A stretch of 64,000 nucleotides of DNA from an uncultured Gammaproteobacteria bacterium (lineage in GTDB: Bacteria; Pseudomonadota; Gammaproteobacteria; Steroidobacterales; Steroidobacteraceae): NCBI GenBank assembly GCA_963786705.1, contig CAWBAG010000027.1:1-64000 (forward strand), given 5' to 3'. Both the position numbers and the translations under genes were made by a program. Of the stretch, positions 22,324-52,644 are shown one piece after another. Under the pieces are notes generated by a model. The model was not told where the DNA came from. It saw nothing but the letters and a program-made list of their open reading frames with translations, and searched no databases. Every line of letters begins with the position of its first letter. Position 1 is the stretch's first letter.

Positions 22324-22725
22324 CTAGACCTGTGTCTGCAGGAACCGGTGCAGCCGCGCGTCGTAAGTCTTGAAATGGTCACCAAACCACGCGGCCAGGC
22401 GGTCCGAGAAGGCATTGTCGTCGAGCACCCCGTGCTCAATGTGCTCGTCCATGATGTCGCGGATATCGTCGAGCAATCGCTCATGATCCACCTTGTGCGC
22501 GCCGAAATCCGGGTACCGGCGCGCCTGCATGTCCTTCTCTTCCAGCGCGAAATGGGCCGAGATGCGGGCGTAGATCTCGCCGAGGAATTCCTCGATACGA
22601 TCGGAGGTCCGGTCCGCACCCAACGCGGCATGCAGTTCGTTGATGAGGCCGATCAATACCTGGTGCTCATGGTCCACCTCGGCAATGCCGATGCGGAATT
22701 CGTCGCGCCATTCGAGCAGGCTCAC
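22324..22725 (-). CDS. bacteriohemerythrin
   Basis: A 133-aa product with hemerythrin His/Glu/Asp ligand motifs (EVDHEH, HFALEE, HKVDHERL, GDHF). AGGAGG lies 7 nt upstream of the GTG start. The start forms a GTGA overlap with the upstream gene's stop. Confidence 0.85.
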   Translation of the reverse strand: MSLLEWRDEFRIGIAEVDHEHQVLIGLINELHAALGADRTSDRIEEFLGEIYARISAHFALEEKDMQARRYPDFGAHKVDHERLLDDIRDIMDEHIEHGVLDDNAFSDRLAAWFGDHFKTYDARLHRFLQTQV

Positions 22726-23231
22726 GGTGGCACCTCCTGGGTGGCCAGCCCGTGTGCCGGCGCGCGCCCGAACTGGAAGCCTCCTTCCGTGCCGCGAAAG
22801 TCGATGACGAAGTTCTGGCCGGGCACGAGCAGGACGGTCGCGACACTCGCATAGTCGAATCCCGTCGCACGGCCGCTGTCGCGCAGCCGCACCTCGAATC
22901 GATGCCGGCCGGCCGGCACGCGGAAGCTCGCGTAGACGGTGGACGGACCATCGTCCCACAGGCCTGCTGGCTGGTGGGTGGCGCGGTGTATCTGCCGCCC
23001 GTCGAGGTCGAGTTCCACATAGACCGGCCAACGGCCGCGTTCGCACGTCGTCGCGCGCCGCTGGTTGAACGGCAGCTTCGCGAGTTCCTGGGGACTGTAG
23101 TGCCGGCACGGCTTGAGCGGCTGCGAGGCATGACTGAAGCTGAGCTTGAGCAGGGCCTGGTCGTGGTGGAGGTACGCGTAGGTCGGCCGCGTGGCAAACC
23201 AGCCGATCAGCAGGGCCAGGGCTCCCAGCAT
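22722..23231 (-). CDS. hypothetical N-terminally anchored (probably periplasmic) protein, about 169 aa
   Basis: The TM anchor is MLGALALLIGWFATRP. It is translationally coupled to the hemerythrin gene. No family was recognised. Confidence 0.5.
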   Translation of the reverse strand: MLGALALLIGWFATRPTYAYLHHDQALLKLSFSHASQPLKPCRHYSPQELAKLPFNQRRATTCERGRWPVYVELDLDGRQIHRATHQPAGLWDDGPSTVYASFRVPAGRHRFEVRLRDSGRATGFDYASVATVLLVPGQNFVIDFRGTEGGFQFGRAPAHGLATQEVPP

Positions 23232-23272
23232 TGCCGCGGCACCGACGACCCGCAGGGGCGCTGCCAGCTGGC

Positions 23273-24838
23273 TCAGTCGTGGCGCGCCAGGCGAGACCCG
23301 TCCGGCCCGGCAGTGGGGAGCGCGACAACGGCCCGCAGGTGCTGTCGGAATTGCGCGAGCGTCTGTCGTGTTCGATGCTGTTGCACCGGTGACGCCCAGG
23401 AGACGGCCACCCGGTCGCGATCCACGCGATCGCGCAGGTGCGGATCCCTCTGGTTGGCAATGCGCTCGTCCACCCACCGGTTGCCGAGCCGCTCGAAGCA
23501 GTCTTCCTCGGCACAACCGGCGATCAGCACGCCGTCGGCGTGCTTGCGCGAGATCACCAGGTCGATGAACGACGGCGGCAGCATCGCGACGCAGGGCATC
23601 GGCACGACGGCGACCCCCGGATCCGCCAGCGCATCGAGATTGCCGGCGTGGGCGCATCGGAAGACGACGACGCGGTCGTTGCCCTGCAGCTTGCCTGTAG
23701 CGGCGATCACCTGGTCGCGCAAGCCTGCGATGGGAGCGGCAGGCAGTTCGATGCCAGGCACCAGTGCGCTCGCGCGGCGGAACGGCGTGGCCGTCGGGCA
23801 CGCGCCGACGCAGATCCCGCAGCTCATGCAGAGGCCAGGATCGACGCGGGCTTCCTGGTCGAACTCGGCGCCGTCCGTCCGCCCGACCATCGTGATCGCG
23901 CCGAACGGGCAGTCCGCGAAACAGCGGCCGCAGCCATTGCAGTTGTCGAGGTGGACCACGGCGGGCGGCGCCTGGCGCAGCGGTGGCAGCCACGGCAGCA
24001 AGGTGAGGAACACGCTGCCGCCGACCAGCGCCGCCCAGAGCGTGCGGCCGCTCACGACGTCGAGCAGGGGATACACGGTCAGATAGAACCAGTCGACGCC
24101 GACGTCGAACGGGGCCCGGTCAAGGTCCGCCGGCGCCTGGCTCATGGCCGGCACGACGAGCGAAAGCGCAACCAGCATCCCGAACACGGCGAGCCCGAGC
24201 CGGCGCGGCGGGTTCACGCGCGCATGCGCGTGGCGCTGGATGTGCACCCACATGAACAGCAGCATGATCAACGGCACGGCGATGTGGATGTAGGCCATCA
24301 GCGTGAAGAACCGCCCGCTCAGGTGCGAGCTGTCGAGGAAGTTCCGCGCGATCGGCTCCGCAAAGATGCCGATGCTGTCGAGCCACTCCGTGGTGGCGAT
24401 GGCGACGTATTGCGCGAGCTGGTCCCAGACGAGCCAGTAGCCGGTGATGCCGCAGGCATAGAGGAACCACAACAACGGCACGCCGGTGACCCACGGGAAC
24501 CAGCGGTTGCCGCGCATGCGATCCATGGCGAATTCGCGCAGCATGTGCAGGATGACGACCACGACCATCGCGTCCGAGGCGTAGCGATGCAGGCTGCGCA
24601 TGATGCCGCCGAGGTACCACTGCTCGCGCGACAGGTACTCGAGCGATGCGTAGGCCTGGGTCACGCCCGTGTCGAAGAACACGTAGACGTAGATGCCGGT
24701 GACGGTGACGATCCAGAACAGGAACCAGCCGAGCGACCCGAGTTGCACGAGGGGATTCAGCACCGGGCCGAAGAACTTCTCGCAGGCCTGCTCGAGTCTC
24801 AGGAAGAGGGCGCGCAGTGACGCCTTGAGCAGCTTCAC
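23273..24838 (-). CDS. fusion protein: di-heme cytochrome b (bc-type N-terminal domain), 2x[4Fe-4S] ferredoxin and MvhD/FlpD-like iron-sulfur domain
   Basis: The 521-aa ORF is intact. It has His-x13-His pairs in TM helices (HRYASDAMVVVVILH and HIAVPLIMLLFMWVH). The cysteine motifs are CNGCGRCFADCP and CMSCGICVGACP. The C-terminus carries FRCAHAGN...PCVAM...IAGCAEEDC. Confidence 0.75.
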   Translation of the reverse strand: MKLLKASLRALFLRLEQACEKFFGPVLNPLVQLGSLGWFLFWIVTVTGIYVYVFFDTGVTQAYASLEYLSREQWYLGGIMRSLHRYASDAMVVVVILHMLREFAMDRMRGNRWFPWVTGVPLLWFLYACGITGYWLVWDQLAQYVAIATTEWLDSIGIFAEPIARNFLDSSHLSGRFFTLMAYIHIAVPLIMLLFMWVHIQRHAHARVNPPRRLGLAVFGMLVALSLVVPAMSQAPADLDRAPFDVGVDWFYLTVYPLLDVVSGRTLWAALVGGSVFLTLLPWLPPLRQAPPAVVHLDNCNGCGRCFADCPFGAITMVGRTDGAEFDQEARVDPGLCMSCGICVGACPTATPFRRASALVPGIELPAAPIAGLRDQVIAATGKLQGNDRVVVFRCAHAGNLDALADPGVAVVPMPCVAMLPPSFIDLVISRKHADGVLIAGCAEEDCFERLGNRWVDERIANQRDPHLRDRVDRDRVAVSWASPVQQHRTRQTLAQFRQHLRAVVALPTAGPDGSRLARHD

Positions 24839-24878
24839 GCCGGTCGCCCCCGTCCGCCGGCCGCAACCGCTGCATGAC

Positions 24879-25720
24879 TCAACGCGAGTTCCGCCAGGAT
24901 ACTGCGATGACGACAGCCACCATGCCGAGGGCGAGAATTCCCGCGATCGCGTCGGCCACGATCGAATAGTCGAAACGATAGCGACCGCTGGCGGGATCGT
25001 AGATCGTGCAGAACAGTTTCACCGACCGGGCGAGCCCGGCGAGCGTGCCGCGCTCGATCTCCTGGCCGCGGACGAGGCGCTTCAGCGGCTCGACGAGACT
25101 TGGCGGGTTGAAGTCCTGCCCGTACACCTGCAGTGTCACGCGCCCGGTGCCGTCGATGACGGTGGTCTGCGTGATGTGGTCGAATCCCTTGGGCGACGGC
25201 CGGTAGGTGAAGCCGACGTCGCGCGCCAGTCGCTCCAGCGTCGCGGTGTCCGTGCTGGCGAAATACCAACCCGGCAATGCCGGCGCCACGCTCCTGCGCA
25301 TACAGCCGCATCCGTGCCGGCGTGTCGTTGGGCGTGTCGAATCCGACCGTCAGGACGGTGAAGCTGTCCGGTCCGAGCGCTCGCCGCGCCACCTTGGCGA
25401 CGTCGCGCAGGTGCACGGTCAGGCCGGAACAGACCTGGTAGCAACTCGTGTAGACGAGGCTCAGCACGACCGGCTTGCCGCGGAGGCTCGACAGCCGGAA
25501 CGCCCGGCCGCGTTGATCGACAAACTGGTAGTCATCGAGTTGCCGGTTGATCGCGGCCTGGCTGGTCGCCAGCGCGGTGGTCGTCGTCAGGAGCCGGCGT
25601 CTGCGCAAGGGCACCTGCGGCCATCGCCCAGGCGCAACCCGAGCAGGAGTCCGCCGTGCAGCGTTGACCTGCGATGGGGCCTGCGCATGGCTCAGTAGAC
25701 GACCAGGCGGCCTGACAGGG
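24879..25720 (-). CDS. sco: SCO1/SenC copper chaperone (copy 1), frameshift near 25260; the start is uncertain
   Basis: The CxxxC region is VVLSLVYTSCYQVCS and there is a C-terminal TM. The two halves lie in ORF 24835..26073 and ORF 24879..25301. An extra T is apparent in GGGTTGGTAT. Confidence 0.7.
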
Positions 25721-25753
25721 CTCCGTCGACGATGGCCCCGACCAGCAGCAGGC

Positions 25754-26640
25754 TCAACTGCAGCAGCGAGGCCAGGAAGTTGCGGATTGCGTTCTGCCGT
25801 GTCGGTGCGCGGACGAGGAGGACGCTTCGGTAGACGAAATACGCGCCGCCGGCTGCGGCACAGGCGAGATAGGAGTTCCCTGCGCCCCAGGCCGACCGGC
25901 AACAGCGCGAGCAACACGAGCAGCACGGTGTGCCCGAGGATCACGCGAGCCGCGACGCGATCGCCGATACACCACCGGCAGCATCGGCACGCCGGCGTCG
26001 GCGTAGTCCTGCCGGTAATACATCGCGAGGCTCCAGAAGTGCGGCGGGGTCCAGAGAAACAGGATGACCGCAAACGTCCATGCGGCCGGGCCCAGGCCTG
26101 GATTCACCGCCGCAGCACCGGCCAGCACGGCGAAACTGCCGGCGAGGCCGCCGACGACGATGTTCAGCCACGTCCGCCGCTTGAGCCAGAGCGTGTAGAC
26201 GACGCCGTAGGTGAACGCGCCGAGGAACACGAAGGCGGCTGCCAGCCAGTTCGTCGCCAGGCCGGCCGAGACGACCGCAACGGCCAGCAGCAAGCCGATC
26301 ACCGCGAACCATGGCGCAGCCGCCGTCGAGCTGCCCGGTGACGAACGGACGGCCGCGAGTGCGCGACATGCGCGCGTCGAGGTCGCGTTCGGCCAGGTGA
26401 TTGAGCGCACCGGCGCTCGCAGCGGCCAGGAAGACCGCGATCGCAAGAACCAGCAACTGCGCACGGCGGCAACCCGGGGCCCTGGGCCATCGCGACGCCC
26501 GCGATGCCGGCGAACATGATCTCGAGGGCGATGCGCGGCTTGAAGACCTCGACCGTGCTCCGCCAGGAAGCCCGATTCGCTGCGAGGTCCGCATCCTGCG
26601 CGACTGCTTGGTGCACGTTCGCTCCTACCGCAGCGGCCAG
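25754..26640 (-). CDS. ctaB: protoheme IX farnesyltransferase (heme O synthase) CtaB/CyoE, at least 3 frame changes
   Basis: The N-terminus is RSTVEVFKPRIALEIMFAGIAGVAMA. The middle is ALNHLAERDLDARMSRTRGRPFVTGQL. The C-terminus is FVFLGAFTYGVVYTLWLKRRT...LWTPPHFWSLAMYYRQDYADAGVPMLPVV. All three parts are in different frames. Confidence 0.7.
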
Positions 26641-28328
26641 ACCTCGGCAAGGTACTTCCAGTTCACGAAGTAGTACAGGACGAACGACACGAAGAACACG
26701 CCGACCAGCACGATCGTGCCGGGGATCTTGAGCGTTCCCTCGTTGCCGTAGCGCGCCACGGCCGCGGCCGATGCCGCGCCGGACACCGGACCGAGCTGCA
26801 CCACTTCGCTGTCGCCGATCCTGCGGCCGAAGAAGACCGAGCAGACGACGACGAGAATGTACATCGCGCCGCCGATCGCGGCCATGATCGCGGACATGCC
26901 GTTGAGCGCCAGCATCAGGAACGCCGCGGGCGAGAACTGGAACTGGCGTGAGCGCGTCCGCGAACGTGATGTCCCAGTGCCTGCGGGGCACGCCGAGCGT
27001 GCCGGCGCCCATCATGAACAGCGAGATGCCGGCAACGCCCAGCCCGAAAATGTAGGGCTGCAGCTGGGCGACCTTCCTGAACATGACCTCGCGACGGAAG
27101 ATCAGCGGTACGAGGAGATACGTGATCGCCATGAACGCGAGCGTCGTGCCGGCGACCACGGTCGCGTGGAAATGCCCCGGCACGTACAGCGTGTTGTGCA
27201 TGATCAGGTTGATCTGCTCGGTGCCCATCACGACGCCGGAGATGCCGCCGAGGAAGCCGAACATGACCAGCGACAGGAACATGCCGGCAAATGCCGGGTT
27301 GCCCCAGGGCGCCTTGCGCAGCCACTCGAACAGGCCCTTGTTGTAGCCCTTGGCGCGCTGCGCCGCCTCGATGGCGCCCGGCACCGTCATGCCGTGGATC
27401 ATGCTGCCGAGCACGGCGAGGTACATCGCGTAGCTGGTGTTGAAGATCTTCCAGCTCGAGCTCACGCCGGGCTCGACCAGCATGTGGTGCGCGCTCGCGA
27501 GCTGCAGGAACAGGATGTACATGAGGAACGCCATGCGGCTGACTTTCTCGGAGATCGGCTTGGCGCCGAGCACCATGGCGCCGATCGCGTACCACACGGC
27601 GACGTGCGCGGAGACGTTGATCTGCTGCGAGGAGTGGCCCATGCCCCACCAGACCAGCTTGTACATCAGCGGGTCGATGCCGCTGATGATGCCGAGCGAC
27701 CAGAGGAAGGTCGGGATGAGGATGATCGCGCCGCAGGCCAGCGTGAACACGGCGATGATCGCCGCCGTGATGGCGCCGAAGGTGACCAGCGGCACCGATC
27801 CCTCGTAGGTCTTCTCGTCCTTGGCAACGACCAGCGTGCCGAAGAAGACCGCGCAGCCGATCAGGGCACCCACGGCGAACAGGACGAGGCCGAGGTAGAA
27901 GTGCGGCGCCGCCAGCAACGGCGCGTAGGAGGTGAACATGACCGAGGAGTTGCCCTGGAGCACCGCGACGTTGGTCATCAGCGCGCCGACCAGCATCAGC
28001 CAGAACTGGACCCATCCCCAGCGTGGCGCGGCAAGCCGTGAATTGAGCAGTACCGCGGAGGCGAAATACAGCACCGCCATCTCGAAGAAGATGATCCAGA
28101 CGAGCAGCACGTCGATGCCGTGTGCGGTCAGCGCGCAGGTAGAACCAGTCGGCCGGCAGCAGGTGCACGGCAGGCCAGCGTGTCAGCGCGACCGACAGGC
28201 CGAACAGGCCACCGACGAGCAGGAACACGACGGCGGCGACGGCGTTCGACCTTGATGAGGTTTTCCGCCGAACGGTCGATCCGCAGGCCGGTCGTCGGGC
28301 AGGTGCGAAAGATGGTTGCAACTGTCAT
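26625..28328 (-). CDS. cbaA: heme-copper oxidase subunit I, B-family (ba3-like) CbaA, several frame changes
   Basis: Most of the protein is in ORF 26299..28110 (GHFHATVVAG, HHMLVEP). The C-terminal TM helices are in ORF 26625..26915. The N-terminus is in other frames. Confidence 0.7.
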
Positions 28329-28338
28329 GACGGCCCGC

Positions 28339-28875
28339 TCAGTTCTTGTCGACGACGTAGATGCGACCGGTCATCGTGTGATGCCCGAAGCCGCAGTACT
28401 CGTTGCAGACGACGCCGAACTGGCCGGATTGATTCGGCGTCATCGTCACGACCATCTCGTATCCGGGGTGTACCTGGATGTTGATGTTGACGGGCTGGAG
28501 GGAGAAGCCGTGCTGCAGATCGATGGACGAGAGGTGCAGCCGGTAGGTCTCGCCCTTGACGAACTCGAGCATCGGCCACCACATGTAGACGCGACCCATC
28601 ATGTAGACGTCGCTGCCGGGCGGGGGTCGCACGACCGGGAATGCACCTTCCTGGCGCACCGTGTACGTCTCGACCATCTTGTCGACCTTGGCCGCGAAGT
28701 CGGCTGGCGTCGTCCTGTAGGCCTCGTTCGAGAGATTCTGGCTTCCGGCGCCATGCCAGTAGATCATCATGAAGAACATCACGATTCCCCACAGGAACGC
28801 GATGCTGGCCCAGATCAATTCGACCTTGTGAACGGGCTCTTTCCACCAGTTTGCGCCCGGAGATGCGATTGACAT
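28339..28875 (-). CDS. cbaB: ba3-type cytochrome c oxidase subunit II (CuA)
   Basis: A 178-aa product with a single TM and the CuA motif CNEYCGFGHHTM. Confidence 0.85.
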   Translation of the reverse strand: MSIASPGANWWKEPVHKVELIWASIAFLWGIVMFFMMIYWHGAGSQNLSNEAYRTTPADFAAKVDKMVETYTVRQEGAFPVVRPPPGSDVYMMGRVYMWWPMLEFVKGETYRLHLSSIDLQHGFSLQPVNINIQVHPGYEMVVTMTPNQSGQFGVVCNEYCGFGHHTMTGRIYVVDKN

Positions 28876-28890
28876 GGCTGCTGTCTCCGG

Positions 28891-29061
28891 TCACGGCGTG
28901 GCGATGGGAATCTGGATGATTTCCATGATTCCCCAGATGAGATAGACGACCGTCGGGATCGTGACGCCGAGGAACAGCAGCAGGAAATGGTTGTCGAGCA
29001 GACGCTGGAAGAACGGCGTGCGTTCGGGACGATCGGGCTCGGTGGGTTGCGGTCCGGACAT
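28891..29061 (-). CDS. 56-aa single-TM protein directly upstream of cbaB (subunit IIa/CbaD-like), absent from the ORF track
   Basis: The product is MSGPQPTEPDRPERTPFFQRLLDNHFLLLFLGVTIPTVVYLIWGIMEIIQIPIATP. It stops 15 nt before the cbaB ATG. Confidence 0.5.
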   Translation of the reverse strand: MSGPQPTEPDRPERTPFFQRLLDNHFLLLFLGVTIPTVVYLIWGIMEIIQIPIATP

Positions 29062-29239
29062 GAGACCCCCTGGCGTTCGCCTGTCTATGTCGTACGGGTC
29101 GCCCCTGCCACCCGGTACATCCGGCGCTTGTTAGCACTTACGTGAGCGTACGTCCTTGATATAGATCAAGCGCACTGCAAAAAAGAAAGCTGCGCCGCAC
29201 CGGGACTGTGCCCGCAGACGCTGTCTCGACCGGTCGCGG

Positions 29240-29511: not shown

Positions 29512-30504
29512 TCATCGGGTCGGCCGCAGAAATCGCAGCAGCGCGACCGTGGCCAGCACGAGCAACGCCGCCACGCCGTTGTGCGCGACTGCCAGCGGCA
29601 ACGGGAAGGTCCTCAGCACCATCACCGGCCCGAGCAGGAGCTGGGCTGCGAGCACGGTCGCGAGGACAACCCCGGTCGTGCGGACACCGCCTGACCGCCC
29701 GAGACGAATCGCCTTCCAGGCCGTGACGGCCAGCACGAGCGCCGTGACGATCGCACCGAGCCGGTGCGTGAAATGGATTGCCACGCGCGCCGGGTGGTCG
29801 AGCACGCCGCCCTCGTAATCGATGCCGAGACCGCGCCAGAGCACGAAGGCATCGCGGAAATCCATCTGCGGCCAGTACGACGCCTGGCAAGTCGGGAAGT
29901 CGGGACAGGCGAAGGCCGCGTAATTGGAACTGACCCAGCCGCCGAGCATGATCTGCACCGCGAGCACGACCAGGCCGAACACGGCCCACGTGCGCAGGCT
30001 GCGCTCGACGGCAGGCGGGGTCGTCCGCGCAGGCTCGAGGTACAGCCACCACAGCAGCGCCATCGTGGTGAGTCCGCCCACGAGGTGCGCCGAGACGATC
30101 AGCGGCTTCAGCAGCAGCGTTACCGTCCACATGCCGAGCAATCCCTGGAACACGACGAGCAGCACCAGCGCTGCGGGCAGCCCCACCGGTTGCCGCCGGT
30201 CGCGACGGTTGCGCCACGCGATCACCGCGAGCGCGACAATCACGAGGCCGAGCGTCGACGCGAGATAGCGATGCACCATTTCCTTGAGCGCCTTGTCCGC
30301 CTCGAGCGGCCGCTCGGGATACGCGGCGTTCGCGACCGCGGAGTTCTCGACCGCGTCGCCGACCGTCAGGTGGCCGTAGCAGCCCGGCCAGTCCGGGCAG
30401 CCGAGGCCCGCGTGGCTCAGGCGCACGTACGCGCCGAGCACGATCACGCAGAAGGCGAGGACCGTGCCCAGCAGGCAGAGCCGGCGAAATGTCGAGTTGT
30501 GCAT
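29512..30504 (-). CDS. ctaA: heme A synthase CtaA/COX15
   Basis: The ORF is intact from MHNSTFRRLCLLGTVLAFCVIVLGAYVRL and carries the conserved Cys pair CPDWPGC. Confidence 0.85.
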   Translation of the reverse strand: MHNSTFRRLCLLGTVLAFCVIVLGAYVRLSHAGLGCPDWPGCYGHLTVGDAVENSAVANAAYPERPLEADKALKEMVHRYLASTLGLVIVALAVIAWRNRRDRRQPVGLPAALVLLVVFQGLLGMWTVTLLLKPLIVSAHLVGGLTTMALLWWLYLEPARTTPPAVERSLRTWAVFGLVVLAVQIMLGGWVSSNYAAFACPDFPTCQASYWPQMDFRDAFVLWRGLGIDYEGGVLDHPARVAIHFTHRLGAIVTALVLAVTAWKAIRLGRSGGVRTTGVVLATVLAAQLLLGPVMVLRTFPLPLAVAHNGVAALLVLATVALLRFLRPTR

Positions 30505-30518
30505 GACGTAGACCTGGG

Positions 30519-31133
30519 CTAGCCGATGTGCGAGAGTCGCAGCAATTTCCGGACGTCCGCAAGCAGCGCCATGTCCGGCGCCGCCGCGGAGTAGCTCAGC
30601 ACGAGATTGCCGAGCGGATCGACGAGGTAGAGGCGTCCCGCGACGGCATCCGCGGTGCCCGGGAAAGCCGCAAGGAGCGCGCGTCCACCGGCTTCGTCGC
30701 GCGGCAGCACGACCGTGAGATCCGGATGTTCGGCCGACAGGTACGCGCGATCGCAGCAACCACCGGTCGCCAGGAACACGCGCTGCACGCGGTCCATGTC
30801 CTTGTTGAGCGCGATGCGCGACTGCCGCGAGAGGTAGAGCAGCTTGCGACAGCGTTCGTCACAGGCGCCGTCGCCGACGAAGAGCATGGTCCACTTGCCT
30901 CGCAGGAGGTCGACTGGCATGGCCACGCCGTCCATGTCCGCTAGCGATGTGACCGGCAGCGGCACGGCGGGATCGATCAGGTCGCCCTGGTTCGTGCCGC
31001 CGACCGGCCGCCAGTCGGTCGGGCCGTAGTAGAGCCAGAACGCCACGGCCAGCGGCACGAAGAACATCGCCGCGAGCAGCAGCAACTGGCGCTGACCGCG
31101 GCGCGGGGACTCGGTGGGGCTGGGCGCGTTCAT
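30519..31133 (-). CDS. membrane-anchored thioredoxin/SCO-like hypothetical protein (cox-cluster associated)
   Basis: A 204-aa product with an N-terminal TM and Cys motif FVGDGACDERC. It sits between surf1 and ctaA. Confidence 0.6.
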   Translation of the reverse strand: MNAPSPTESPRRGQRQLLLLAAMFFVPLAVAFWLYYGPTDWRPVGGTNQGDLIDPAVPLPVTSLADMDGVAMPVDLLRGKWTMLFVGDGACDERCRKLLYLSRQSRIALNKDMDRVQRVFLATGGCCDRAYLSAEHPDLTVVLPRDEAGGRALLAAFPGTADAVAGRLYLVDPLGNLVLSYSAAAPDMALLADVRKLLRLSHIG

Positions 31134-31900
31134 GGGGGTGAATTGGACGCTTTCATGGCGGCGCCGTCAGGTCGTTGCTGGAAACTGAGCGCGATGAAGA
31201 TCACCAGCAGCACGACGCGAGCGCGAACCACTGGATCGCGTAGCCCGAGGTGCCGCTCGGGGCCGACACTGAGCGCTGGCCGCCACTCGCGTTCGAATCC
31301 GTCCGGTTCGGCCGCGTCGAGCAGCAGGATGCGCGGTTCGACGGGCGCGCCGAGTGCGTGCTCGAGATCGCCGCGCACCGGAAAATTGAGTACGCGAGGC
31401 CAGCGCGTGTCGCCCGGCACGCCGGCTTCGCCGACGCGCACGCCCGGTACCGGCAACTGGTCGAGGCGGCCGACGACGACGCGCGCCGTCGCCGGGACGG
31501 CTACGCTCGGCAGGTCGGCGCGGCTTGCCCCGAGCGGAACCCAGCCCCGATCGACCAGCAGCAAGTGCCCGGTTCCTTCGCGGACCAACGGCGTCAGCAC
31601 GCGGTAACCCGGGCGGCCCGTGCGCGACGAGGGCATGTTGTCGAGCAGCACCTGGCGTGCGGAATCGTAGCGGCCGGCGACCGTCACGTGCTGGTAGCGC
31701 GGCATGGCGTCGACCGTTCCATTGTCGAGCACGGCGGTTGTCACCGCGCCGCGCGTGAATGCGTCGATCATGGCCTGCTTGTCGTGACGGCGGTCCAGTT
31801 GCCACCAGCCGAGCGCGACGAATGCGGCGCACAGCAGCGTCGTGACCAGCACGGCCCAGGCGCGCGGAGCGAACACGCGATCGGCCAGTCGCGGCGTCAT
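31130..31900 (-). CDS. surf1: SURF1 cytochrome oxidase assembly protein with a local compensated frame disturbance near the C-terminus
   Basis: The product begins MTPRLADRVFAPRAWAVLVTTLLCAAFVALGWWQLDRRHDKQ. The expected HLGYAIQWFALA segment is replaced by HLGLRDPVVRARV. The start ATGA overlaps the stop of the next gene. Confidence 0.75.
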   Translation of the reverse strand: MTPRLADRVFAPRAWAVLVTTLLCAAFVALGWWQLDRRHDKQAMIDAFTRGAVTTAVLDNGTVDAMPRYQHVTVAGRYDSARQVLLDNMPSSRTGRPGYRVLTPLVREGTGHLLLVDRGWVPLGASRADLPSVAVPATARVVVGRLDQLPVPGVRVGEAGVPGDTRWPRVLNFPVRGDLEHALGAPVEPRILLLDAAEPDGFEREWRPALSVGPERHLGLRDPVVRARVVLLVIFIALSFQQRPDGAAMKASNSPP

Positions 31901-31936
31901 CTATACTCTGCTTCCAACGCGTCCGGCCTCCCGCAC

Positions 31937-32146
31937 ATGCTCGTCAAGCTGCTCATCGTCGCCGTGCTGGTTGCGATCGTCGTGAGCCTCGGCTCCGGAC
32001 TTCGCCACCTCGTCAAGGACGACGGCCAGTCCAGGAAACGCATGGTCGACGCGTTGACCGTTCGCATCGCCCTGTCCGTGCTGCTGTTCGTGCTGCTGTT
32101 CGTCGCGTGGCGCACGGGGCTCATCACGCCGCACCACGTGCGCTGA
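31937..32146 (+). CDS. twin-transmembrane-helix small protein (DUF2909-like), encoded on the strand opposite the surrounding cox genes
   Basis: The 69-aa product is MLVKLLIVAVLVAIVVSLGSGLRHLVKDDGQSRKRMVDALTVRIALSVLLFVLLFVAWRTGLITP. It shows strong GC3 bias. Both minus-strand frames give only low-complexity translations. Confidence 0.6.
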   Translation: MLVKLLIVAVLVAIVVSLGSGLRHLVKDDGQSRKRMVDALTVRIALSVLLFVLLFVAWRTGLITPHHVR

Positions 32147-32204
32147 CCAGGCGCAACGGCCGCCCGTGGGCGGCCGCCGTGTCCGCCCGTCGCCGGGACT
32201 GCGG

Positions 32205-33086
32205 TCAGAGCCAGTACACGAAGATGAACAGGCCGAGCCAGACCACGTCGACGAAGTGCCAGTACCAGGCGACTCCCTCGAACGCGAAATGATGCTCGGG
32301 CGTGAAGTGGCCCTTCATGACGCGCATCCAGACCACGAGCAGCATGATCGCGCCGATCGTGACGTGCAGGCCGTGGAAGCCCGTCAGCATGAAGAATGTC
32401 GAGCCATAGACGCCGCTGCCGAGCGTGAGGTTCAGCTCGTGGTAGGCGTGCGCGTACTCCTCTGCCTGCAGGCCGACGAACAGGAAGCCGAGGAGGAACG
32501 TCAGGGCCAGGAAGACCTTCAGCACGCCGCGGCTGCCGGCCTGCAGCGCGTGGTGCGCGATCGTGATCGTGACGCCGGACGTGAGCAGGATCGCGGTGTT
32601 GATGGCAGGCAGCCCGAACGCGGGGATGATCTCGAACGAGCCGCCGACGTCAGCGGGCCCGTTCGTCGGCCATGCGGGCTGGAACTCCTTCCAGAGGAAC
32701 AGGTTGGTGAGGAACTTGCTGCCCTCGCCGCCCAGCCACGGCACCGAGAGCTGCCGTGCGTAGTACAGCGCGCCGAAGAACGCGCCGAAGAACATCACTT
32801 CGGACAAGATGAACCACAGCATCCCCATGCGGAACGACTTGTCGACGTCCTGGTTGTACAGGCCGCCCTGGCTCTCGCCGATGACCGTGCCGAACCAGCC
32901 ATAGAACATGTAGAACACGGCAAGCAGGCCGGCGAAGAACAGCCACGGCGCCAGGTTCACGCCGTTCAGCAATGCCGCGGCGCCGAGCATCGTGACGAAG
33001 AGCGAGACCGAACCGATGATCGGCCACTTGCTGCCGTGCGGGATGTAGTACTTCCCCGCGTCGTGCGCGGTATGAGCCTGGGCCAT
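32205..33086 (-). CDS. coxC: cytochrome c oxidase subunit III
   Basis: The ORF is intact from MAQAHTAHDAGKYYIPHGS and carries the typical CoxC core. Confidence 0.85.
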   Translation of the reverse strand: MAQAHTAHDAGKYYIPHGSKWPIIGSVSLFVTMLGAAALLNGVNLAPWLFFAGLLAVFYMFYGWFGTVIGESQGGLYNQDVDKSFRMGMLWFILSEVMFFGAFFGALYYARQLSVPWLGGEGSKFLTNLFLWKEFQPAWPTNGPADVGGSFEIIPAFGLPAINTAILLTSGVTITIAHHALQAGSRGVLKVFLALTFLLGFLFVGLQAEEYAHAYHELNLTLGSGVYGSTFFMLTGFHGLHVTIGAIMLLVVWMRVMKGHFTPEHHFAFEGVAWYWHFVDVVWLGLFIFVYWL

Positions 33087-33132
33087 GGGCGTCTGCCTCT
33101 GTCTTCTGTCTGGCGTGTGTGTCGAACCAAGC

Positions 33133-33666
33133 CTAGCGTGCTGCGAGTCTTCCGGGCTGCGGCAACGCATAGATCGAGTAGGCGAGCGTCATCCGATCGA
33201 CCTGCCGCGGCAGGTCAGGATCGACGATGAAGCGCACCGTGAATTCGCGTTCCTCGGAGGCCGCGAACGACTGCGGCGTGAAGCAGAAGCACTCGGTCTT
33301 CTGCAGGTACCTCGCAGTGACCGCGGGCGCCACGCTCGGCACGGCCTGCGCGACCACCGGCACGGTCGCCTTGTTGCGGATGCGGAACCTCGCCTCGTAG
33401 AGCTTGCCGGGCTGCAGCACGAGACTGCGCGTCATGGGCGTCAGCTCGAATTCCGCGGCGGGCGGCAATATCGAGACGAACTCGAGCGTGACCTCGCGGC
33501 TCGAGCCGGCGTCCGACGTGCCGAGCTGCGACGGCGCCGTGTTGACGCGTAACCCGGCCGCCTCGCAGATGACCTTGTAGAGCGGCACCAGCGCGAAGCC
33601 GAACGCGAAGCTGCCCGCCACCATGAGCACGAGGCCGCGGGTCAGGGAGTGGTCAGGCCTGCGCAC
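33133..33666 (-). CDS. ctaG: cytochrome c oxidase assembly protein CtaG/Cox11
   Basis: A 177-aa product with one TM and the CFCF copper motif. Confidence 0.85.
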
Positions 33667-33695
33667 CGGGCACGGTCATGTGATGTCGCCCGCGC

Positions 33696-33824
33696 TCACG
33701 GCGACGAGCTCACGACGCTCGACGCGATGAACGCGACGTAGATGCCGAACGCCACCAGCATCAGCAGGATCGTGTTGCGGCGGATGCGCCGGCGCTGCTC
33801 GTCCTGTCGGTCGCCAGTTGTCAT
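33696..33824 (-). CDS. 42-aa cytochrome oxidase small assembly protein-like ORF between coxA and ctaG, absent from the ORF track
   Basis: The product is MTTGDRQDEQRRRIRRNTILLMLVAFGIYVAFIASSVVSSSP. Confidence 0.45.
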   Translation of the reverse strand: MTTGDRQDEQRRRIRRNTILLMLVAFGIYVAFIASSVVSSSP

Positions 33825-33846
33825 CTGCCGATGCCTCGCGCCGTCC

Positions 33847-35475
33847 CTACTTGACCTGCGGCGCTTCGTCGAACGTGTGGTACGGCGCGGGCGACGGCAC
33901 GGTCCATTCGAGGCCGTGCATGCTGCCGTCCCAGACCGCCGCCGTCGCCCTGGCGCCGCCGCGCGCGCACTTCCAGATGACGTACACGAACAGCAGCTGC
34001 GAGAGGCCGAAGCCGAATCCGCCGATCGACGACACCATGTTCCAGTCGGCGAACTGCGTCGAATAATCCGGGATGCGCCGCGGCATGCCCGCCAGTCCCA
34101 GGAAGTGCTGCGGGAAGAACAGCACGTTGACGAACACGGCGGACAGCCAGAAATGAATCGTGGCGAGCTTCATGTCGTACATGTGGCCGGTCCACTTCGG
34201 CATCCAGTAGTAGACGCCCGCCATGATCGCGAAGACCGCGCCCGGTACGAGCACGTAGTGGAAATGCGCGACGATGAAGTACGTGTCGTGATACTGGAAG
34301 TCCACCGGCGCGATGGCCATCATCAGGCCCGAGAAGCCGCCGATCGTGAACAGGAACAGGAACGCGAGCGCGAACAGCATGGGCGGCTCGAACGTCAGCG
34401 AGCCCTTCCACATCGTCGCGGTCCAGTTGAACACCTTCACGCCCGTGGGCACGGCGATCAGCATCGTGCTCAGCATGAAGAACATCTCGCCCGCGAGCGG
34501 CATGCCCACCGTGAACATGTGGTGCGCCCAGACGATGAACGACAGGAACGCGATCGACGCCGTCGCGTAAACCATCGCGTCGTAGCCGAACAGGCGCTTG
34601 CGCGAGAACGTCGGGATGATCTCCGAGACGATCCCGAACGCGGGCAGGATCATGATGTAGACCTCGGGGTGCCCGAAGAACCAGAAGACGTGCTGGTAGA
34701 GCACCGGGTCGCCGCCGCCCGAGGCCGCGAAGAACGTCGTGTGGAAGAAGTGATCGGTGAGCAGCATCGTCACGGCGCCTGCGAACACCGGCATGACGGC
34801 GATCAGCAGGTACGCGGTGATCAGCCACGTCCACACGAACAGCGGCATCTTCAGCAGCGACATGCCCGGCGCGCGCAGGTTCATGATCGTGACGATGATG
34901 TTGATCGAACCCATGATCGACGAGGCGCCCGCGAGGTGGATCGCGAAGATCGCGAGCGGGAAAGCATCTCCGGTCTGCAGCACCAGCGGTGGATAGAGCG
35001 TCCAGCCCGAAGCGGGACCGCCGCCCGGCATGAACAGCGACAGGATCAGCAGCGTGAACGCCGACACCAGCAGCCAGAAGCTGAAGTTGTTCATGCGCGG
35101 CAGCGCCATGTCGGGCGCGCCGATCTGGAGCGGGACCATCCAGTTCGCGAGGCCCACCGTCGCCGGCATGACCGCACCGAACACCATGACCAGCGCGTGC
35201 ACCGTCGTCATCGTGTTGAAGAAGCCGGGATCCACGAGCTGCATGCCGGGCATGAAGAGCTCGGCGCGCACGACGAGCGCCATCGCGCCGCCGAGCAGGA
35301 ACATGACGAGACTGAAGATCAGGTACATCGTGCCGATGTCCTTGTGATTCGTCGTCGTCAGCCAGCGCATGATGCCCTTCGCGGGGCCGTGGTCGTCGTG
35401 GTGGCCCTGTTCGGTGACCTCCACGTCGTGGTAGGTGCGGCTCAGGACGTCCGGATGGGCGTGGGTCTCGGTCAT
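33847..35475 (-). CDS. coxA: cytochrome c oxidase subunit I (aa3-type)
   Basis: An intact 542-aa ORF with the canonical A-family motifs (GHPEVYIMILPAFG, HHMFTVG). Confidence 0.9.
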   Translation of the reverse strand: MTETHAHPDVLSRTYHDVEVTEQGHHDDHGPAKGIMRWLTTTNHKDIGTMYLIFSLVMFLLGGAMALVVRAELFMPGMQLVDPGFFNTMTTVHALVMVFGAVMPATVGLANWMVPLQIGAPDMALPRMNNFSFWLLVSAFTLLILSLFMPGGGPASGWTLYPPLVLQTGDAFPLAIFAIHLAGASSIMGSINIIVTIMNLRAPGMSLLKMPLFVWTWLITAYLLIAVMPVFAGAVTMLLTDHFFHTTFFAASGGGDPVLYQHVFWFFGHPEVYIMILPAFGIVSEIIPTFSRKRLFGYDAMVYATASIAFLSFIVWAHHMFTVGMPLAGEMFFMLSTMLIAVPTGVKVFNWTATMWKGSLTFEPPMLFALAFLFLFTIGGFSGLMMAIAPVDFQYHDTYFIVAHFHYVLVPGAVFAIMAGVYYWMPKWTGHMYDMKLATIHFWLSAVFVNVLFFPQHFLGLAGMPRRIPDYSTQFADWNMVSSIGGFGFGLSQLLFVYVIWKCARGGARATAAVWDGSMHGLEWTVPSPAPYHTFDEAPQVK

Positions 35476-35481
35476 GGTCGG

Positions 35482-36399
35482 TTACTCCGCGTCCGCGACC
35501 AGCACGGCTGGCGTGGTGTTGTCGGTGTAGGCCGCGCGCGTGGCAGCCTGGTCGCCCGTCGCGACGGCTGTCTGGGCCGCGGGCGGCACTGCCGCCTGTC
35601 GCGCGGCTTTCTGCGCTGCGAGCCAGGCCTCGTAGGCTGCGGGTTCCTTCACCTCGACCACGATCGGCATGAAGCCGTGGTCGCGGCCGCAAAGCTCCGC
35701 ACATTGGCCGCGGTAGATACCGACCGTGTCTGCCTTGAACCACAGTTCGTTGATGTAGCCGGGGATAGCGTCTTTCTTCATGCCGAAATCGGGCACCCAC
35801 CACGCGTGGAGCACGTCGGCGGCAGTGACCAGGACGCGCACCTTGGTGCCGACCGGCACCACGAGCGGGTTATCCACTTCGAGCAGGTAATTCTCGACCG
35901 AGTCCGGGGCGATGCCCGAGTCGAGCTGGCGCGCGGCGTCGCTGGTGCGCGCGAGCGTCGAGAAGAAACTGACGCCCTCGTCCACGTAATCGTACTGCCA
36001 CTTCCACTGGTAGCCGGTGACCTTGATCGTGAGCTTCGAGCCGCTTGCGTCTTCGATCTTGACCAGGGTCCGCGCCGCCGGCACGGCCATTGCGACCAGG
36101 ATCAGCACCGGGATCAGTGTCCAGAGGACCTCGGCATTGGTGCTGTGGTCGAAACTGGCGGGGACGGCTCCCTTCGACTTCCGGAACGTGGCGATCGAAT
36201 AGATCATCACGCCGAACACGGCAACGGCAATGGCCACGCAGACCCAGAGGATCAGCATGTGGAGGCCGTAGATTTCGCGGCTGAGCTCGGTGACACCGGT
36301 CCGCAGGTTGACCTCCCACGCGGCCATGGCCGGGCTCGAGACCAGCGTCGAGAGGCCTGACGCCGCAAGGGCCGCGAGGGCCCGCCTCACCATCTTCAT
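35482..36399 (-). CDS. coxB: cytochrome c oxidase subunit II (aa3-type)
   Basis: A signal peptide, two TM helices and the CuA motif CAELCGRDHGFM are present. Confidence 0.85.
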   Translation of the reverse strand: MKMVRRALAALAASGLSTLVSSPAMAAWEVNLRTGVTELSREIYGLHMLILWVCVAIAVAVFGVMIYSIATFRKSKGAVPASFDHSTNAEVLWTLIPVLILVAMAVPAARTLVKIEDASGSKLTIKVTGYQWKWQYDYVDEGVSFFSTLARTSDAARQLDSGIAPDSVENYLLEVDNPLVVPVGTKVRVLVTAADVLHAWWVPDFGMKKDAIPGYINELWFKADTVGIYRGQCAELCGRDHGFMPIVVEVKEPAAYEAWLAAQKAARQAAVPPAAQTAVATGDQAATRAAYTDNTTPAVLVADAE

Positions 36400-36473
36400 T
36401 GGCACCACCGAAACTCCCTTGACGTTGACCGGCCGGGTTCCGGGCACCCGGACAGACCCGCGCGACGGCACGA

Positions 36474-37004
36474 TCAATACGATCGATGCTCGAGCGCAGG
36501 GGATTCGCTCGTCCTTCCCACCAATTGCCGGAGCCGCCCCGCAAGACTGCGGCGCTCGTCCTCCATGAGAAACCGGCCCACCTCGCAGGCGATTCCGTGC
36601 GACTCGATCACGAGCCGGCTCGGGTGCAGCACCACTCGCGGATCGCGGAGTTTAACCGTCGCCCAATGGCGTGGAAATACCAACCGACTCGATTCGCCGG
36701 GCCCGCGTCGCTCGACCACGACCGAGGCGTCCGAGACCAGGATGACCTCGCGGCATTCTCCGGAGCGCAGACTGGCCTGCACGGCCCACCAGAGCAACCA
36801 GATCTCGAGCCCGGCGATTGGCAGCACCGGCCACAGGCCCTGGACCGCGAAGAAGACGGCAATGCCGAACGTGAGCACGGCCAATCCACCCACGAACGCC
36901 CGGGCCGACCGCGGGGTCAATGCACAGTTGGGCACCAGTTCGATCCGATGCTCGACGGGCGTGGCGGGCGAACGGTTGTGCGTGGCGATGACCATGGTTC
37001 GCAC
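36474..37004 (-). CDS. DUF2244 integral membrane protein (cox-associated)
   Basis: The 176-aa ORF is intact. Confidence 0.55.
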   Translation of the reverse strand: MRTMVIATHNRSPATPVEHRIELVPNCALTPRSARAFVGGLAVLTFGIAVFFAVQGLWPVLPIAGLEIWLLWWAVQASLRSGECREVILVSDASVVVERRGPGESSRLVFPRHWATVKLRDPRVVLHPSRLVIESHGIACEVGRFLMEDERRSLAGRLRQLVGRTSESPALEHRSY

Positions 37005-41930: not shown

Positions 41931-42048
41931 ACGCAAATCCTTGTTTTCCGGCCAGAAATTCGGGCTCGCGCCGGCGGGGGTGCCGGGCGCAAGGTCGTGG
42001 CCGGACGACGCGGCAGTATTCGGGCGGAGCGCGGCGGCTGTCAACCAA

Positions 42049-42783
42049 TGGCCATGTTCGAAGTCGACAGGTGGCTGGAGCGCGGCGCGGACTGGTTGCT
42101 GCCGTCGCGGTGCGCCGTATGCCGGGGCCGCGGCCAGCGGCAGGGCCTCGATCTCTGCGCCGCCTGCGAGGCCGACCTGCCGTACCTCCACTCCCCGTGC
42201 CTGCGCTGCGGCTTGCCGAGCGAGGCGCACGACGCGCCGGACGGGCCGGGCTGCACTCGTTGCCGGGGCATCGACCTTTCTTTCGCGCGCTGCTACGCGC
42301 CGTATCCTGTACGCGGCCCCGCTCGACGGCCTCGTGCAGGACCTCAAGTATGGCGGCGCGCTCGCGAACGCGCGCGTGCTCGGGACGCTGCTCGGCCGCG
42401 CGGTTCGCGCGCTCGGCCTGCACCTCGACGTCGACCTGCTCGTGCCCGTGCCGCTGCACCCGTCCCGCCTGCTCGAGCGCGGCTTCAACCAGTCGCACGA
42501 GATCGCGCGGTTCGCGGCGCGCGAGGTCGGTATACGCTGTGTGCCGCGCGCTTTGCGCCGGCAGCGATCGACCTCGCCGCAGGTCGGGCTCGCGCGCGAG
42601 GCGCGCGCAGCGAACGTGGCCGGGGCCTTCGGTGCCGATCGGGACCAGGTCGCGGGCCGGCGCGTGGCGCTCGTCGACGACGTCGTGACGACGGGCAGCA
42701 CCGCTCGTGCGGCCGCAAGGCAATTGCGAACCGCGGGCGCGTTCACCGTGGACGCGTGGTCGGTCGCGCGGGTGCCGGGCTGA
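42049..42783 (+). CDS. comF: ComF-family phosphoribosyltransferase (ComFC/GntX-like), frameshift near 42295
   Basis: N-terminal Cys clusters (CAVC...CAAC, CLRC...CTRC) are present. The PRT motif [13 protein letters not shown] is in another frame. Confidence 0.7.
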
Positions 42784-42879
42784 TCCGCGGCTCGCCGGCC
42801 CGACTGCAACGCGCGCAGCCGCGCAGGTTACACTGCGCCGGCCCGGACGGCCAGGCTTTCGTCATGAACAACACCAGGA

Positions 42880-44090
42880 ATGCGTATCCACCGCTGGATG
42901 CCGCTGCGCGATTTCCTGAAGCTCGAGTCCGCGAGCGGCATCGTGCTCGTGCGTGGCCGGCGCGCTCGCCCTGGTGGCGGCCAATACGCCGTTGGCGGAC
43001 CGGTACGAGTCGCTGCTGCGACGCCCTTCAGCGTGCAGGTCGGCGACGTTCACGCTCGACAAGCCGCTGCTCGATCTGGGTCAACGACCTGCTGATGGCG
43101 ATCTTCTTCCTGCTGGTCGGGCTCGAGATCAAGCGCGAGGTCGTGACCGGCGAGCTGTCGGACGCCTCGAAGGTCGCGCTGCCCGCCGTCGCGGCGCTCG
43201 GCGGCATGGTCGTGCCGGCCGCGATCTACGCGGGGATCAACTGGCACGATCCGGTCGGGCATCGCGCGGCTGGGCGATTCCCTCGGCCACCGACATCGCC
43301 TTCGCGCTCGGCGTGCTGTCGCTGTTCGGCGAGCGCGTGCCGGTCGGCCTGAAGGTGTTCCTGATGACGCTCGCGGTGCTCGACGACCTCGGCGCCATCG
43401 TGATCATCGCGATCTTCTACACGAGCGACCTGTCGGTGCCGGCGCTGGTGCTCGCCGGCCTCGCGGTGGCGGCGCTGCTCGCGTTGAACCGGCTCGGCGT
43501 GCTGCGCATTGCGCCCTACATGCTGGTCGGCACGGTGCTGTGGCTCTGCGTGCTCAAGTCCGGCGTGCACGCCACGCTGGCCGGCGTCGTCACCGCGCTG
43601 TTCGTGCCGGCGCGCGACCCGCGCGATCCCGGCCACCCGCCGCTCACGACGGCTCGAGCACTCGCTGCATCCGTGGGTGGCGTTCGGCATCCTGCCGGTG
43701 TTCGCGTTCTCGAACGCCGGCGTCGACCTCGGCGGGCTGGGCATCGCGCGACCTGCTGCAGCCGATCCCGCTCGGCATCATGCTCGGCCTCTTCGTCGGC
43801 AAGCAGGTGGGCGTGTTCGGCATTCGCCTGGGCTCGCCGTCAGCGCCGGACTCGCGCAGCTGCCCGTCGGGCGTCGACTTCAGGCAGGTCTACGGCGCGG
43901 CCGTGCTCTGCGGCATCGGATTCACGATGAGCCTGTTCATCGGCATGCTCGCGTTCGAGAACGCGGGCGCGGGCGAGGTGGTCGTGACCGACCGGCTCGG
44001 CATCCTGGTCGGCTCGCTGCTGTCCGCGGCGCTCGGCTACGTCGTGCTGAATTTCGTGCTGCCGCGACGCGCAGCAGCAACCCTTGAGCT
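42880..44090 (+). CDS. nhaA: Na+/H+ antiporter NhaA, at least 6 frame changes in about 1.2 kb (possible pseudogene)
   Basis: NhaA segments occur in alternating frames. They include [81 protein letters not shown] and [14 protein letters not shown]. Confidence 0.6.
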
Positions 44091-44131
44091 GCGTCGAGCC
44101 GGTCGTGCGAGACGGGCTCTGGCCGGCAGCC

Positions 44132-47171: not shown

Positions 47172-47181
47172 TCATGCGGCG

Positions 47182-47589: not shown

Positions 47590-47752
47590 GGTGCGGCTCC
47601 TGCAGCGGGATCGATGGCGGCAGCGTAGTGGAGACGCGGAGACGTGGATAGTGCCTGCCGGTCGACCGTCCGTGACGTGAATCACCGGCGGGGCGCGGTC
47701 CGCCGCAATCGTTCGCGCCCGCTTGCGCGCCGCGGCGGGTCGTCTCGTGGCG

Positions 47753-51245: not shown

Positions 51246-51282
51246 CAGAACCTCTCCATGCTCGGCATTGCGTCGCCTGCTT

Positions 51283-52641: not shown

Positions 52642-52644
52642 GCG

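Follow-up and report, generated by a model that had tools for sequence, protein, structure and literature searches.

Much of the nitric oxide (NO) reduction and nitrous oxide (N2O) formation in the environment is ascribed to NO reductases of the eNOR type. The eNOR of R. marinus is a demonstrated NO reductase with heme As in both heme sites, and the "cytochrome a1-like" protein of M. magnetotacticum is an eNOR as well; the physiological electron donor of the enzyme is not addressed in that work (PMC11214002). A clade of cytochromes b extended by 4Fe-4S and MvhD domains, with no Rieske protein in the gene cluster, was named PDWF-FeS by Kao and Hunte (2014, Genome Biol Evol 6:1894; PMC4122944), who gave it one paragraph and no function. 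Here we describe a gene of the same architecture on contig CAWBAG010000027.1 (assembly GCA_963786705.1) of an uncultured gammaproteobacterium of the Steroidobacteraceae. The stretch analysed, called the window in the following, comprises positions 1 to 64,000 of this contig. The open reading frame (ORF) under study, the target, occupies 23273-24838 on the minus strand and has a 521-aa product according to the ORF list of the window. It encodes a bc-type di-heme cytochrome b fused to a 2x[4Fe-4S] ferredoxin domain and an MvhD/FlpD-like domain, and it lies in the operon of an eNOR-type NO reductase. Identity and operon role of the fusion can be assigned with high confidence. From sequence comparison, we lean towards a function as quinone-linked electron module serving the eNOR.

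An initial annotation of the window, made from the sequence alone, had proposed an unusual single-polypeptide fusion of cytochrome b, two 4Fe-4S clusters and an MvhD/FlpD-like domain. Its coordinates and motifs proved correct and have to be completed by the strand and by the His spacing, which is 13 residues in both pairs. All three Pfam modules were found well above their gathering cut-offs, and the matches in the PDB agree with them. Cytochrome_B (PF00033) covers residues 23-200 with 69.9 bits (cut-off 27.2, E 3e-19). Fer4 families match residues 294-350 with E values of 1e-11 to 1e-8; in the test of PF12838 and PF00037, Fer4 reached 44.4 bits (cut-off 21.1) and Fer4_7 41.4 bits (cut-off 27). 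FlpD (PF02662) extends over residues 398-503 with 45.3 bits (cut-off 22.3, E 1e-11). PDB sequence matches comprised cytochrome b6 (1.7e-20), the MvhB polyferredoxin and MvhD (8e-6), and the MvhD chains 9sw2_D and 5odc_D align including their C...GC..DC pattern (C416, C442, C447). The MvhD/FlpD-like nature of the C-terminal region is thereby confirmed.

In the numbering of the 521-aa product the heme ligands are His84-x13-His98 and His185-x13-His199, and this 13/13 spacing is shared by 238 of 240 family members. The 4Fe-4S motifs CNGCGRCFADCP and CMSCGICVGACP are located at residues 300-311 and 337-348, respectively. FRCAHAGN, PCVAM and AGCAEEDC contribute Cys395, 416, 442 and 447, the presumed ligands of a [2Fe-2S] cluster. 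In 73 sequences, the Cys of the ferredoxin (eight) and FlpD (four) domains are invariant, as are the four heme His and the Asp-Trp pair within an xDWF(Y) motif. This Qo-type motif reads VDWF(Y) at residues 248-252 of the target and stands at the PEWY position; in a census of 240 proteins it appeared as L/F/I/M/V-DWF with PDWF being rare, D-W being invariant and F/Y nearly so. No curated NCBIfam model reached its cut-off. The nearest models were ExtP, cytochrome b6, the HdrA2 C-terminus, SoxC and ExtQ, with scores of 75 against a cut-off of 325 for cytochrome b6 (PRK03735), and QcrB gave 25 against 500.

A structure prediction, suggested as a check in the initial annotation, was available with the AlphaFold2 model of a 92%-identical homologue (P0002; predicted local distance difference test score 84.9, predicted template modelling score 0.82). 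From N to C terminus, the model begins with an amphipathic helix and six transmembrane (TM) helices, together with cd and ef elements. After these come the ferredoxin domain, an FlpD domain of Rossmann-like fold and a long helix, followed by a seventh TM helix (528-551) and a beta-sandwich (554-691). In Foldseek the first ~290 residues have the fold of bc1 cytochrome b and superpose on it over ~280-296 columns (E ~5e-7, TM(target) 0.52-0.57). Pfam, PDB matches, invariant ligands and this confident model together support the three-part identity. Since the N-terminus of cytochrome b is on the cytoplasmic side and six TM helices follow, the Fe-S domains are placed in the cytoplasm. The seventh TM helix after these domains then puts the beta-sandwich in the periplasm. 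The suggestion that the protein wires quinol or membrane heme to soluble Fe-S chemistry fits this topology.

The informative context, missed in the initial annotation, is the operon around the gene. We compared 83 loci: the window, locus L001, 80 GTDB species representatives and a plasmid from a cultured strain of Defluviimonas. Together with Turneriella parva and a metagenome-assembled genome (MAG) of SAR324, 85 loci with the fusion were examined. Wherever the contig extends far enough, the 83 loci keep one gene order on one strand: a 56-aa single-TM ORF, heme-copper subunit II, subunit I, heme O synthase (CtaB; 42 loci), SCO, target, C-terminal module and bacteriohemerythrin. The stop codon of SCO and the GTG start codon of the target share bases (GTGA), and the start of the bacteriohemerythrin overlaps the stop of the C-terminal module. 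Bacteriohemerythrin is present in 82 of the 83 loci, all of which are proteobacterial. CtaA is usually encoded elsewhere. The 56-aa ORF could correspond to small subunits such as ba3 IIa or CbaC.

Subunit I aligns to its counterpart in Thermus ba3 with 166 bits. All six His ligands are kept and Gln replaces the cross-link Tyr237, the motif GHS(S/A)QQ(I/L)N being found in 70 of 70 loci (GHSSQQIN in the window). Gln at the position of the cross-link Tyr is the mark of eNOR, Asn that of sNOR/bNOR (PMC8756737 Table A4, after Hemp and Gennis 2008). By its ligand signature of six His, Tyr exchanged for Gln and a CuA subunit II, the neighbouring heme-copper enzyme is of the eNOR type; NO reductase activity of this type has been demonstrated only with the R. 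marinus enzyme (PMC11214002). The cluster norSY-senC-orf1 of ammonia-oxidising bacteria (sNOR) was considered as well and rejected, as sNOR has Asn where the enzyme here has Gln and orf1/cbaD is described as a small six-TM protein. A motif scan of the 83 loci revealed no Rieske signature (CxHxGC...CxCH), which disposes of a hidden Rieske gene, and annotated loci show neither Rieske nor cytochrome c1/f. Within the conserved gene set of the fusion-bearing eNOR operons there is no gene for cytochrome c or cupredoxin. None of the 85 loci has a gene for a hydrogenase, Hdr subunit, dehydrogenase or flavoprotein adjoining the fusion; a hydrogenase/Hdr link, as the MvhD domain might suggest, is therefore rejected.

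The association extends beyond Proteobacteria. In the complete genome of T. parva (Spirochaetota) and in the SAR324 MAG, the order is small ORF, subunit II, subunit I (GHSAQQ) and target, after which a TPR protein and SCO take the place of hemerythrin, which is absent at both loci. CtaA, NnrS, a Crp/Fnr regulator and a fusion of NirK with cytochrome c are encoded next to the T. parva cluster. At this locus (L084, CP002959.1, 10144-18163) the genes 3' of the fusion are, in detail, TPR protein, SCO, two unknown ORFs, CtaA, a DGC-domain protein, the Crp/Fnr regulator, the NirK-cytochrome c fusion, a second SCO/AhpC-like protein and NnrS, so that the region forms a compact NO/nitrite island without hemerythrin.

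eNOR-type loci without the fusion exist as well. On plasmids of Thermomicrobium roseum and Thermus thermophilus, loci with the motif GHGAQQ have no fusion within 7 kb, and a cytochrome c gene lies near the Thermus one. The fusion thus accompanies eNOR in certain clades as an optional partner rather than forming a core subunit. The T. roseum plasmid (L086, 8817-10619) also encodes an unusually long "heme o synthase" of 600 aa that might be a CtaA-CtaB fusion. Around the Thermus locus (L087, 1182-9400) genes for cytochrome P460, cytochrome c, a multicopper (NirK-like) protein, an Rrf2 regulator and DUF542/ScdA-like proteins were observed.

The fusion was regarded as unusual in the initial annotation; it is in fact common. 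A profile search against 1.84 billion representatives yielded 802 clusters (50% identity) at E <= 1e-30, many of them full-length (~690-720 aa), and a scan of 185,579 species genomes found the fusion in at least 410. Each word-indexed search for the family returned more than 4,000 proteins. The nearest relatives of the target are in Steroidobacteraceae-like gammaproteobacterial MAGs. Among cultured bacteria, the fusion is carried by Defluviimonas, Limibaculum, Tabrizicola, Pararhizobium, Marivita and Turneriella, among others. Kao and Hunte cite a T. parva protein (WP_014803259.1, our P0376), which matches the family profile with 329 bits over positions 9-690. With the xDWF motif, the 4Fe-4S and MvhD fusion, the lack of a Rieske gene and this full-length match, the target belongs to the PDWF-FeS clade, and the fusion architecture has accordingly been known since 2014.

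As to whether the protein is of a common and already named family, the first part is true and the second half true, since the architecture bears a clade name but database entries carry generic names such as "cytochrome b N-terminal domain-containing protein" and "hydrogenase iron-sulfur subunit" and no curated family exists. The latter name and that of "cbb3-type oxidase subunit I" used at these loci are misleading. On the Defluviimonas plasmid (L082, RefSeq NZ_CP156080.1, 8510-14481) subunit II is annotated as "hypothetical protein", and the orthologue of the 56-aa ORF has the same name in the PLSDB gene table. Literature searches on eNOR with hemerythrin, on MvhD with cytochrome b fusion and on PDWF gave nothing beyond Kao and Hunte. 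No paper linking PDWF-FeS cytochrome b with eNOR or giving a function was found, including PMC4122944 and PMC11214002.

The 521-aa ORF, described as intact in the initial annotation, is the first three quarters of the gene. Homologues of 86-92% identity are 704-706 aa long, and the full gene spans 22722-24838 (minus) with ~704 codons. In tblastn, P0002 aligns in two parts: residues 2-516 match 24841-23297 (frame -1), and residues 522-706 match 23279-22725 (frame -3). DNA alignment with eight related loci (L001-L008) revealed two 1-bp insertions in the window, near 23300 and 23280; between them the third frame reads LPGRTGLAWRA compared to QPGRTGVAWRA in P0002. The last ~185 aa, with the seventh TM helix and the periplasmic beta-sandwich, are thereby found in a different frame, and no ATG, GTG or TTG start for this detached module occurs near the break. 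Natural two-gene versions with a separate C-terminal module are found in ~22 of the 83 loci and on the Defluviimonas plasmid. An evolved split was rejected for the window, as the close relatives are all fused, the frame between the two insertions is preserved and a second start codon is missing.

The neighbouring genes carry frameshifts as well, as noted in the initial annotation. Frames in tblastn indicate at least eight in subunit I (at least three), CtaB (at least four) and SCO (at least one), which brings the total with the target to at least ten within ~6.5 kb. These numbers and the missing start codon of the detached module could point to a decaying pseudogene operon in which the 521-aa ORF is a non-functional remnant. 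We consider this improbable. In a hidden Markov model of the phase of third-position GC content (GC3), frame flips occur at equal frequency in other parts of the window such as 42-48.7 kb, and decay confined to the eNOR operon was rejected on this basis. Moreover, every fragment of the operon genes retains 79-95% amino acid identity to its relatives with no in-frame stops, and the peptide between the two insertions is preserved. The pattern is typical of homopolymer-type errors in long-read assemblies, and an indel-rich, probably long-read assembly is the simplest reading of the frameshifts. The GC3 phase flips every 100-400 nt at 42000-48760. Related long-read MAG loci (L030 with the 728-aa protein P0048, and L051) also have frame-shifted or shortened C-terminal modules, the similarity of P0048 being lost beyond ~residue 560; database protein lengths of the family are therefore not always reliable. 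The coordinates of the target modules and of the neighbouring genes are listed in Table 1.

Table 1. Modules of the fusion gene and genes of the surrounding eNOR-type operon, with positions in the window
Feature	Position	Strand	Evidence
bc-type cytochrome b core, helices A-F, target residues 1-290	23969..24838	-	PF00033; cytochrome b6 sequence match; Foldseek to bc1 cytochrome b; invariant His and D-W
2x[4Fe-4S] ferredoxin domain, residues 294-350, C300/303/306/310 and C337/340/343/347	23789..23959	-	Pfam Fer4, Fer4_7, Fer4_9, Fer4_10; eight Cys invariant
MvhD/FlpD-like domain, residues 398-503	23330..23647	-	PF02662; aligns to MvhD chains; NCBIfam HdrA2 C-terminus match
Break region, two single-base insertions compared to all close relatives	23279..23300	-	tblastn frame change -1 to -3; nucleotide alignments; insertions create stop at 23273-23275
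Detached C-terminal module: seventh TM helix and ~150-aa periplasmic beta-sandwich, invariant His and two invariant Cys	22722..23279	-	
Bacteriohemerythrin, ~133 aa	22324..22725	-	tblastn; L004 orthologue 91.6 bits on NF033749 (cut-off 84)
SCO1/SenC-type copper chaperone, at least 1 frameshift	24835..25688	-	Pfam SCO1-SenC on L004 orthologue; present in 80/83 loci
Heme O synthase (CtaB/CyoE), at least 4 frameshifts	25695..26616	-	tblastn frames; L004 orthologue 263.7 bits on TIGR01473 (cut-off 210.3)
Heme-copper subunit I, eNOR type, at least 3 frameshifts	26628..28328	-	tblastn frames -3, -1, -2, -3; alignment to T. thermophilus ba3
Heme-copper subunit II, 178 aa, complete CuA motif (H...CNEYCGFGHHTM), intact	28339..28875	-	ORF list; Pfam COX2 and NCBIfam CoxB on L004 orthologue; 88% identical to L004
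56-aa single-TM ORF upstream of subunit II	28894..29061	-	tblastn with L001 and L082 small ORFs: 91% and 59% identity; found in 67 loci

Besides the eNOR-type operon (26300-29100), the window holds two further heme-copper clusters. The region 29512-36651 is an A-type cox cluster (ctaA, SCO-like, SURF1, coxIII, ctaG, coxI, coxII), and 49484-52644 encodes a subunit I and a subunit II-cytochrome c fusion.

How could the fusion serve the eNOR? Quinol would be oxidised in a Qo-like pocket of the Rieske-less bc-type cytochrome b, with hemes bL and bH and the xDWF site on the periplasmic side. The two b hemes would connect this pocket with the cytoplasmic Fe-S chain by electron transfer through the membrane, in one direction or the other; the chain would take the electron that reaches the Qi site in bc1. 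The module would thus couple the quinone pool to the eNOR, in the role that SoxC has in the SoxABCD quinol oxidase of Sulfolobus. The analysis establishes domain composition, ligands, topology, operon linkage and the lack of a Rieske gene; we infer quinol binding, the direction of electron flow, physical association with the eNOR and a cytoplasmic partner, potentially hemerythrin in Proteobacteria. In a more specific variant the fusion might be the quinol-to-eNOR electron donor itself, i.e. the SoxC-like entry module of a quinol:NO oxidoreductase; this proposal by analogy is tentative and falls short of even chances. A SoxC-like donor role is favoured by the missing cytochrome c and cupredoxin genes in the conserved gene set, by the existence of fusion-free eNOR-type loci, the Thermus one with a cytochrome c gene nearby, and by the observation that just the eNOR subunits, SCO and the periplasmic module are inherited together with the fusion throughout.

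Several points weigh against the quinone-linked function. The eNOR-type loci of Thermus and Thermomicrobium are devoid of the fusion, and the R. marinus enzyme was isolated and active with N,N,N',N'-tetramethyl-p-phenylenediamine (TMPD)/ascorbate without any fusion protein (PMC11214002). The weak point is the path from the Qo-like site to CuA: CuA implies that electrons enter on the periplasmic side, yet the fusion has no periplasmic redox cofactor, and its C-terminal sandwich shows no similarity to cupredoxins or Rieske proteins. Further, neither SoxC nor bc1 has an equivalent of the Fe-S chain. The Qo motif mostly begins with L, F, I or V in place of Pro, which leaves quinol binding uncertain. 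Finally, the window copy may itself be non-functional if both insertions are real.

Alternatively, the fusion might act beside the eNOR, without feeding it, as a NarI/NarH-like half of a redox loop, which would agree with the cytoplasmic location of the Fe-S chain. Quinol would be oxidised on the periplasmic face, and both electrons would travel via bL, bH, 2x[4Fe-4S] and [2Fe-2S] to an acceptor in the cytoplasm. For Proteobacteria, this acceptor would be the hemerythrin, which would either be kept reduced or be used for scavenging cytoplasmic NO or O2. The hemerythrin gene directly follows in the 82 loci mentioned above and is translationally coupled by the stop/start overlap. An MvhD-type terminal cluster serves as a protein-to-protein electron connector in the Mvh-Hdr complex, and the di-iron NO-handling proteins NorA/YtfE encoded beside nor genes provide a precedent. 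T. parva and SAR324, however, keep fusion and eNOR genes with a TPR protein instead of hemerythrin, which is consequently not a universal partner. Why the gene is so strictly linked to both eNOR subunits, I and II, and why the periplasmic module is conserved would also be left unexplained. We consider this function unlikely. Even less probable is the reverse wire, in which a cytoplasmic low-potential donor would feed the MvhD and ferredoxin clusters and electrons would leave outward via bH and bL to quinone or directly to the eNOR. Clusters of the ferredoxin and MvhD types are usually of low potential, which makes the transfer from Fe-S to heme b downhill, and the Fer4 and FlpD module matches the C-terminus of HdrA2, a handler of low-potential electrons. 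The 85 loci, in contrast, offer no dehydrogenase, flavoprotein, hydrogenase or Hdr gene next to the fusion as a source of such electrons, and the conserved acidic-Trp motif of Qo type suggests quinol chemistry on the periplasmic side.

The position of the gene between or beside CtaB, SCO and, in T. parva, CtaA would also be compatible with an assembly or maturation factor, which might deliver electrons for the conversion of heme O to heme A(s) or for the insertion of copper or heme into the eNOR. With heme As in both sites, the enzyme needs O2-dependent heme A synthesis (PMC11214002). Hemerythrin binds O2, which would be in line with this role. CtaB, however, is found in just 42 of the 83 loci, CtaA is mostly remote, and a full bc-type cytochrome b with quinol-site motif and a wire of three clusters appears elaborate for a chaperone. 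To our knowledge, there is no assembly factor with a cytochrome b/Fe-S/MvhD architecture, and we regard this function as very unlikely. A similarly low probability is attributed to a bifurcating arrangement, in which fusion and eNOR would form a Rieske-less, quinol-oxidising complex. CuA, with a potential similar to that of the Rieske cluster, would take the first quinol electron at the xDWF site with the periplasmic beta-sandwich as docking adaptor, and the strongly oxidising NO/N2O couple would drive the second electron via the low-potential b hemes into the ferredoxin/MvhD chain. If this applied, NO respiration would produce reductant of low potential or, at a minimum, close a full electrogenic loop.

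With its occurrence in eNOR operons of Alpha- and Gammaproteobacteria, Spirochaetota and SAR324, the fusion is a testable candidate for the link between quinone pool and eNOR. Alongside the Sulfolobus Sox complexes, it also provides a second case in which an entire cytochrome b is put to use outside bc complexes. Suitable cultured hosts are the genetically tractable Magnetospirillum magneticum AMB-1, T. parva and Defluviimonas. New in this study is the full gene structure, in which the seventh TM helix and the periplasmic sandwich are either fused or encoded separately. Also new are the conservation of the eNOR operon context in several phyla, the hemerythrin partner in Proteobacteria and the clade-specific, optional nature of the module.

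Compared to the description of the PDWF-FeS clade (PMC4122944), the heme-copper/eNOR operon, the hemerythrin and the C-terminal TM and beta-sandwich module are additions, as they are unmentioned there, and the lineage of the window has V, L, F or I at the first motif position rather than P. An extra membrane protein after senC in a CuA-type NOR operon is also known as orf1 of sNOR or cbaD of Bacillus (PMC4940428, PMC3475470); in contrast to the target of ~704 aa, this protein has been described with ~190 aa, six TM helices and neither heme nor Fe-S domains. The closest curated models for the cytochrome b part are ExtP (98 bits over residues 33-202, cut-off 290) and ExtQ (26 bits over residues 220-292, cut-off 150) from the selenite/tellurite reduction operon of Geobacter, which are separate proteins without Fe-S or MvhD domains and have another operon context.

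With MvhD and the C-terminal module of HdrA2, the target shares the FlpD fold, the Cys pattern and the preceding 2x[4Fe-4S] ferredoxin domain. The examined loci differ by the absence of hydrogenase, HdrABC and flavoprotein genes, and the hosts are aerobic or denitrifying bacteria instead of methanogens. The similarity to cytochrome b of bc1 and b6f comprises the fold of helices A-F, of which B and D carry the four His ligands spaced by 13 residues, and cd and ef loops with the acidic-Trp motif. Unlike these, the target is devoid of helices G and H and of a Rieske or cytochrome c1/f partner, has cytoplasmic Fe-S domains where bc1 has only the Qi site, and scores far below the cytochrome b6 and QcrB cut-offs. 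On the model cyt_b_SoxC the target reaches 35 bits (E 5.8e-9) compared to a cut-off of 740 and is no member of this family, and SoxC has no Fe-S domains. SoxA is not known to contain CuA, whereas subunit II here has the full CuA site. What both systems have in common is a Rieske-less cytochrome b in the operon of a B-family-related heme-copper enzyme using heme As, and in SoxABCD this cytochrome b serves as the quinol-oxidising entry module (see also PMC4122944).

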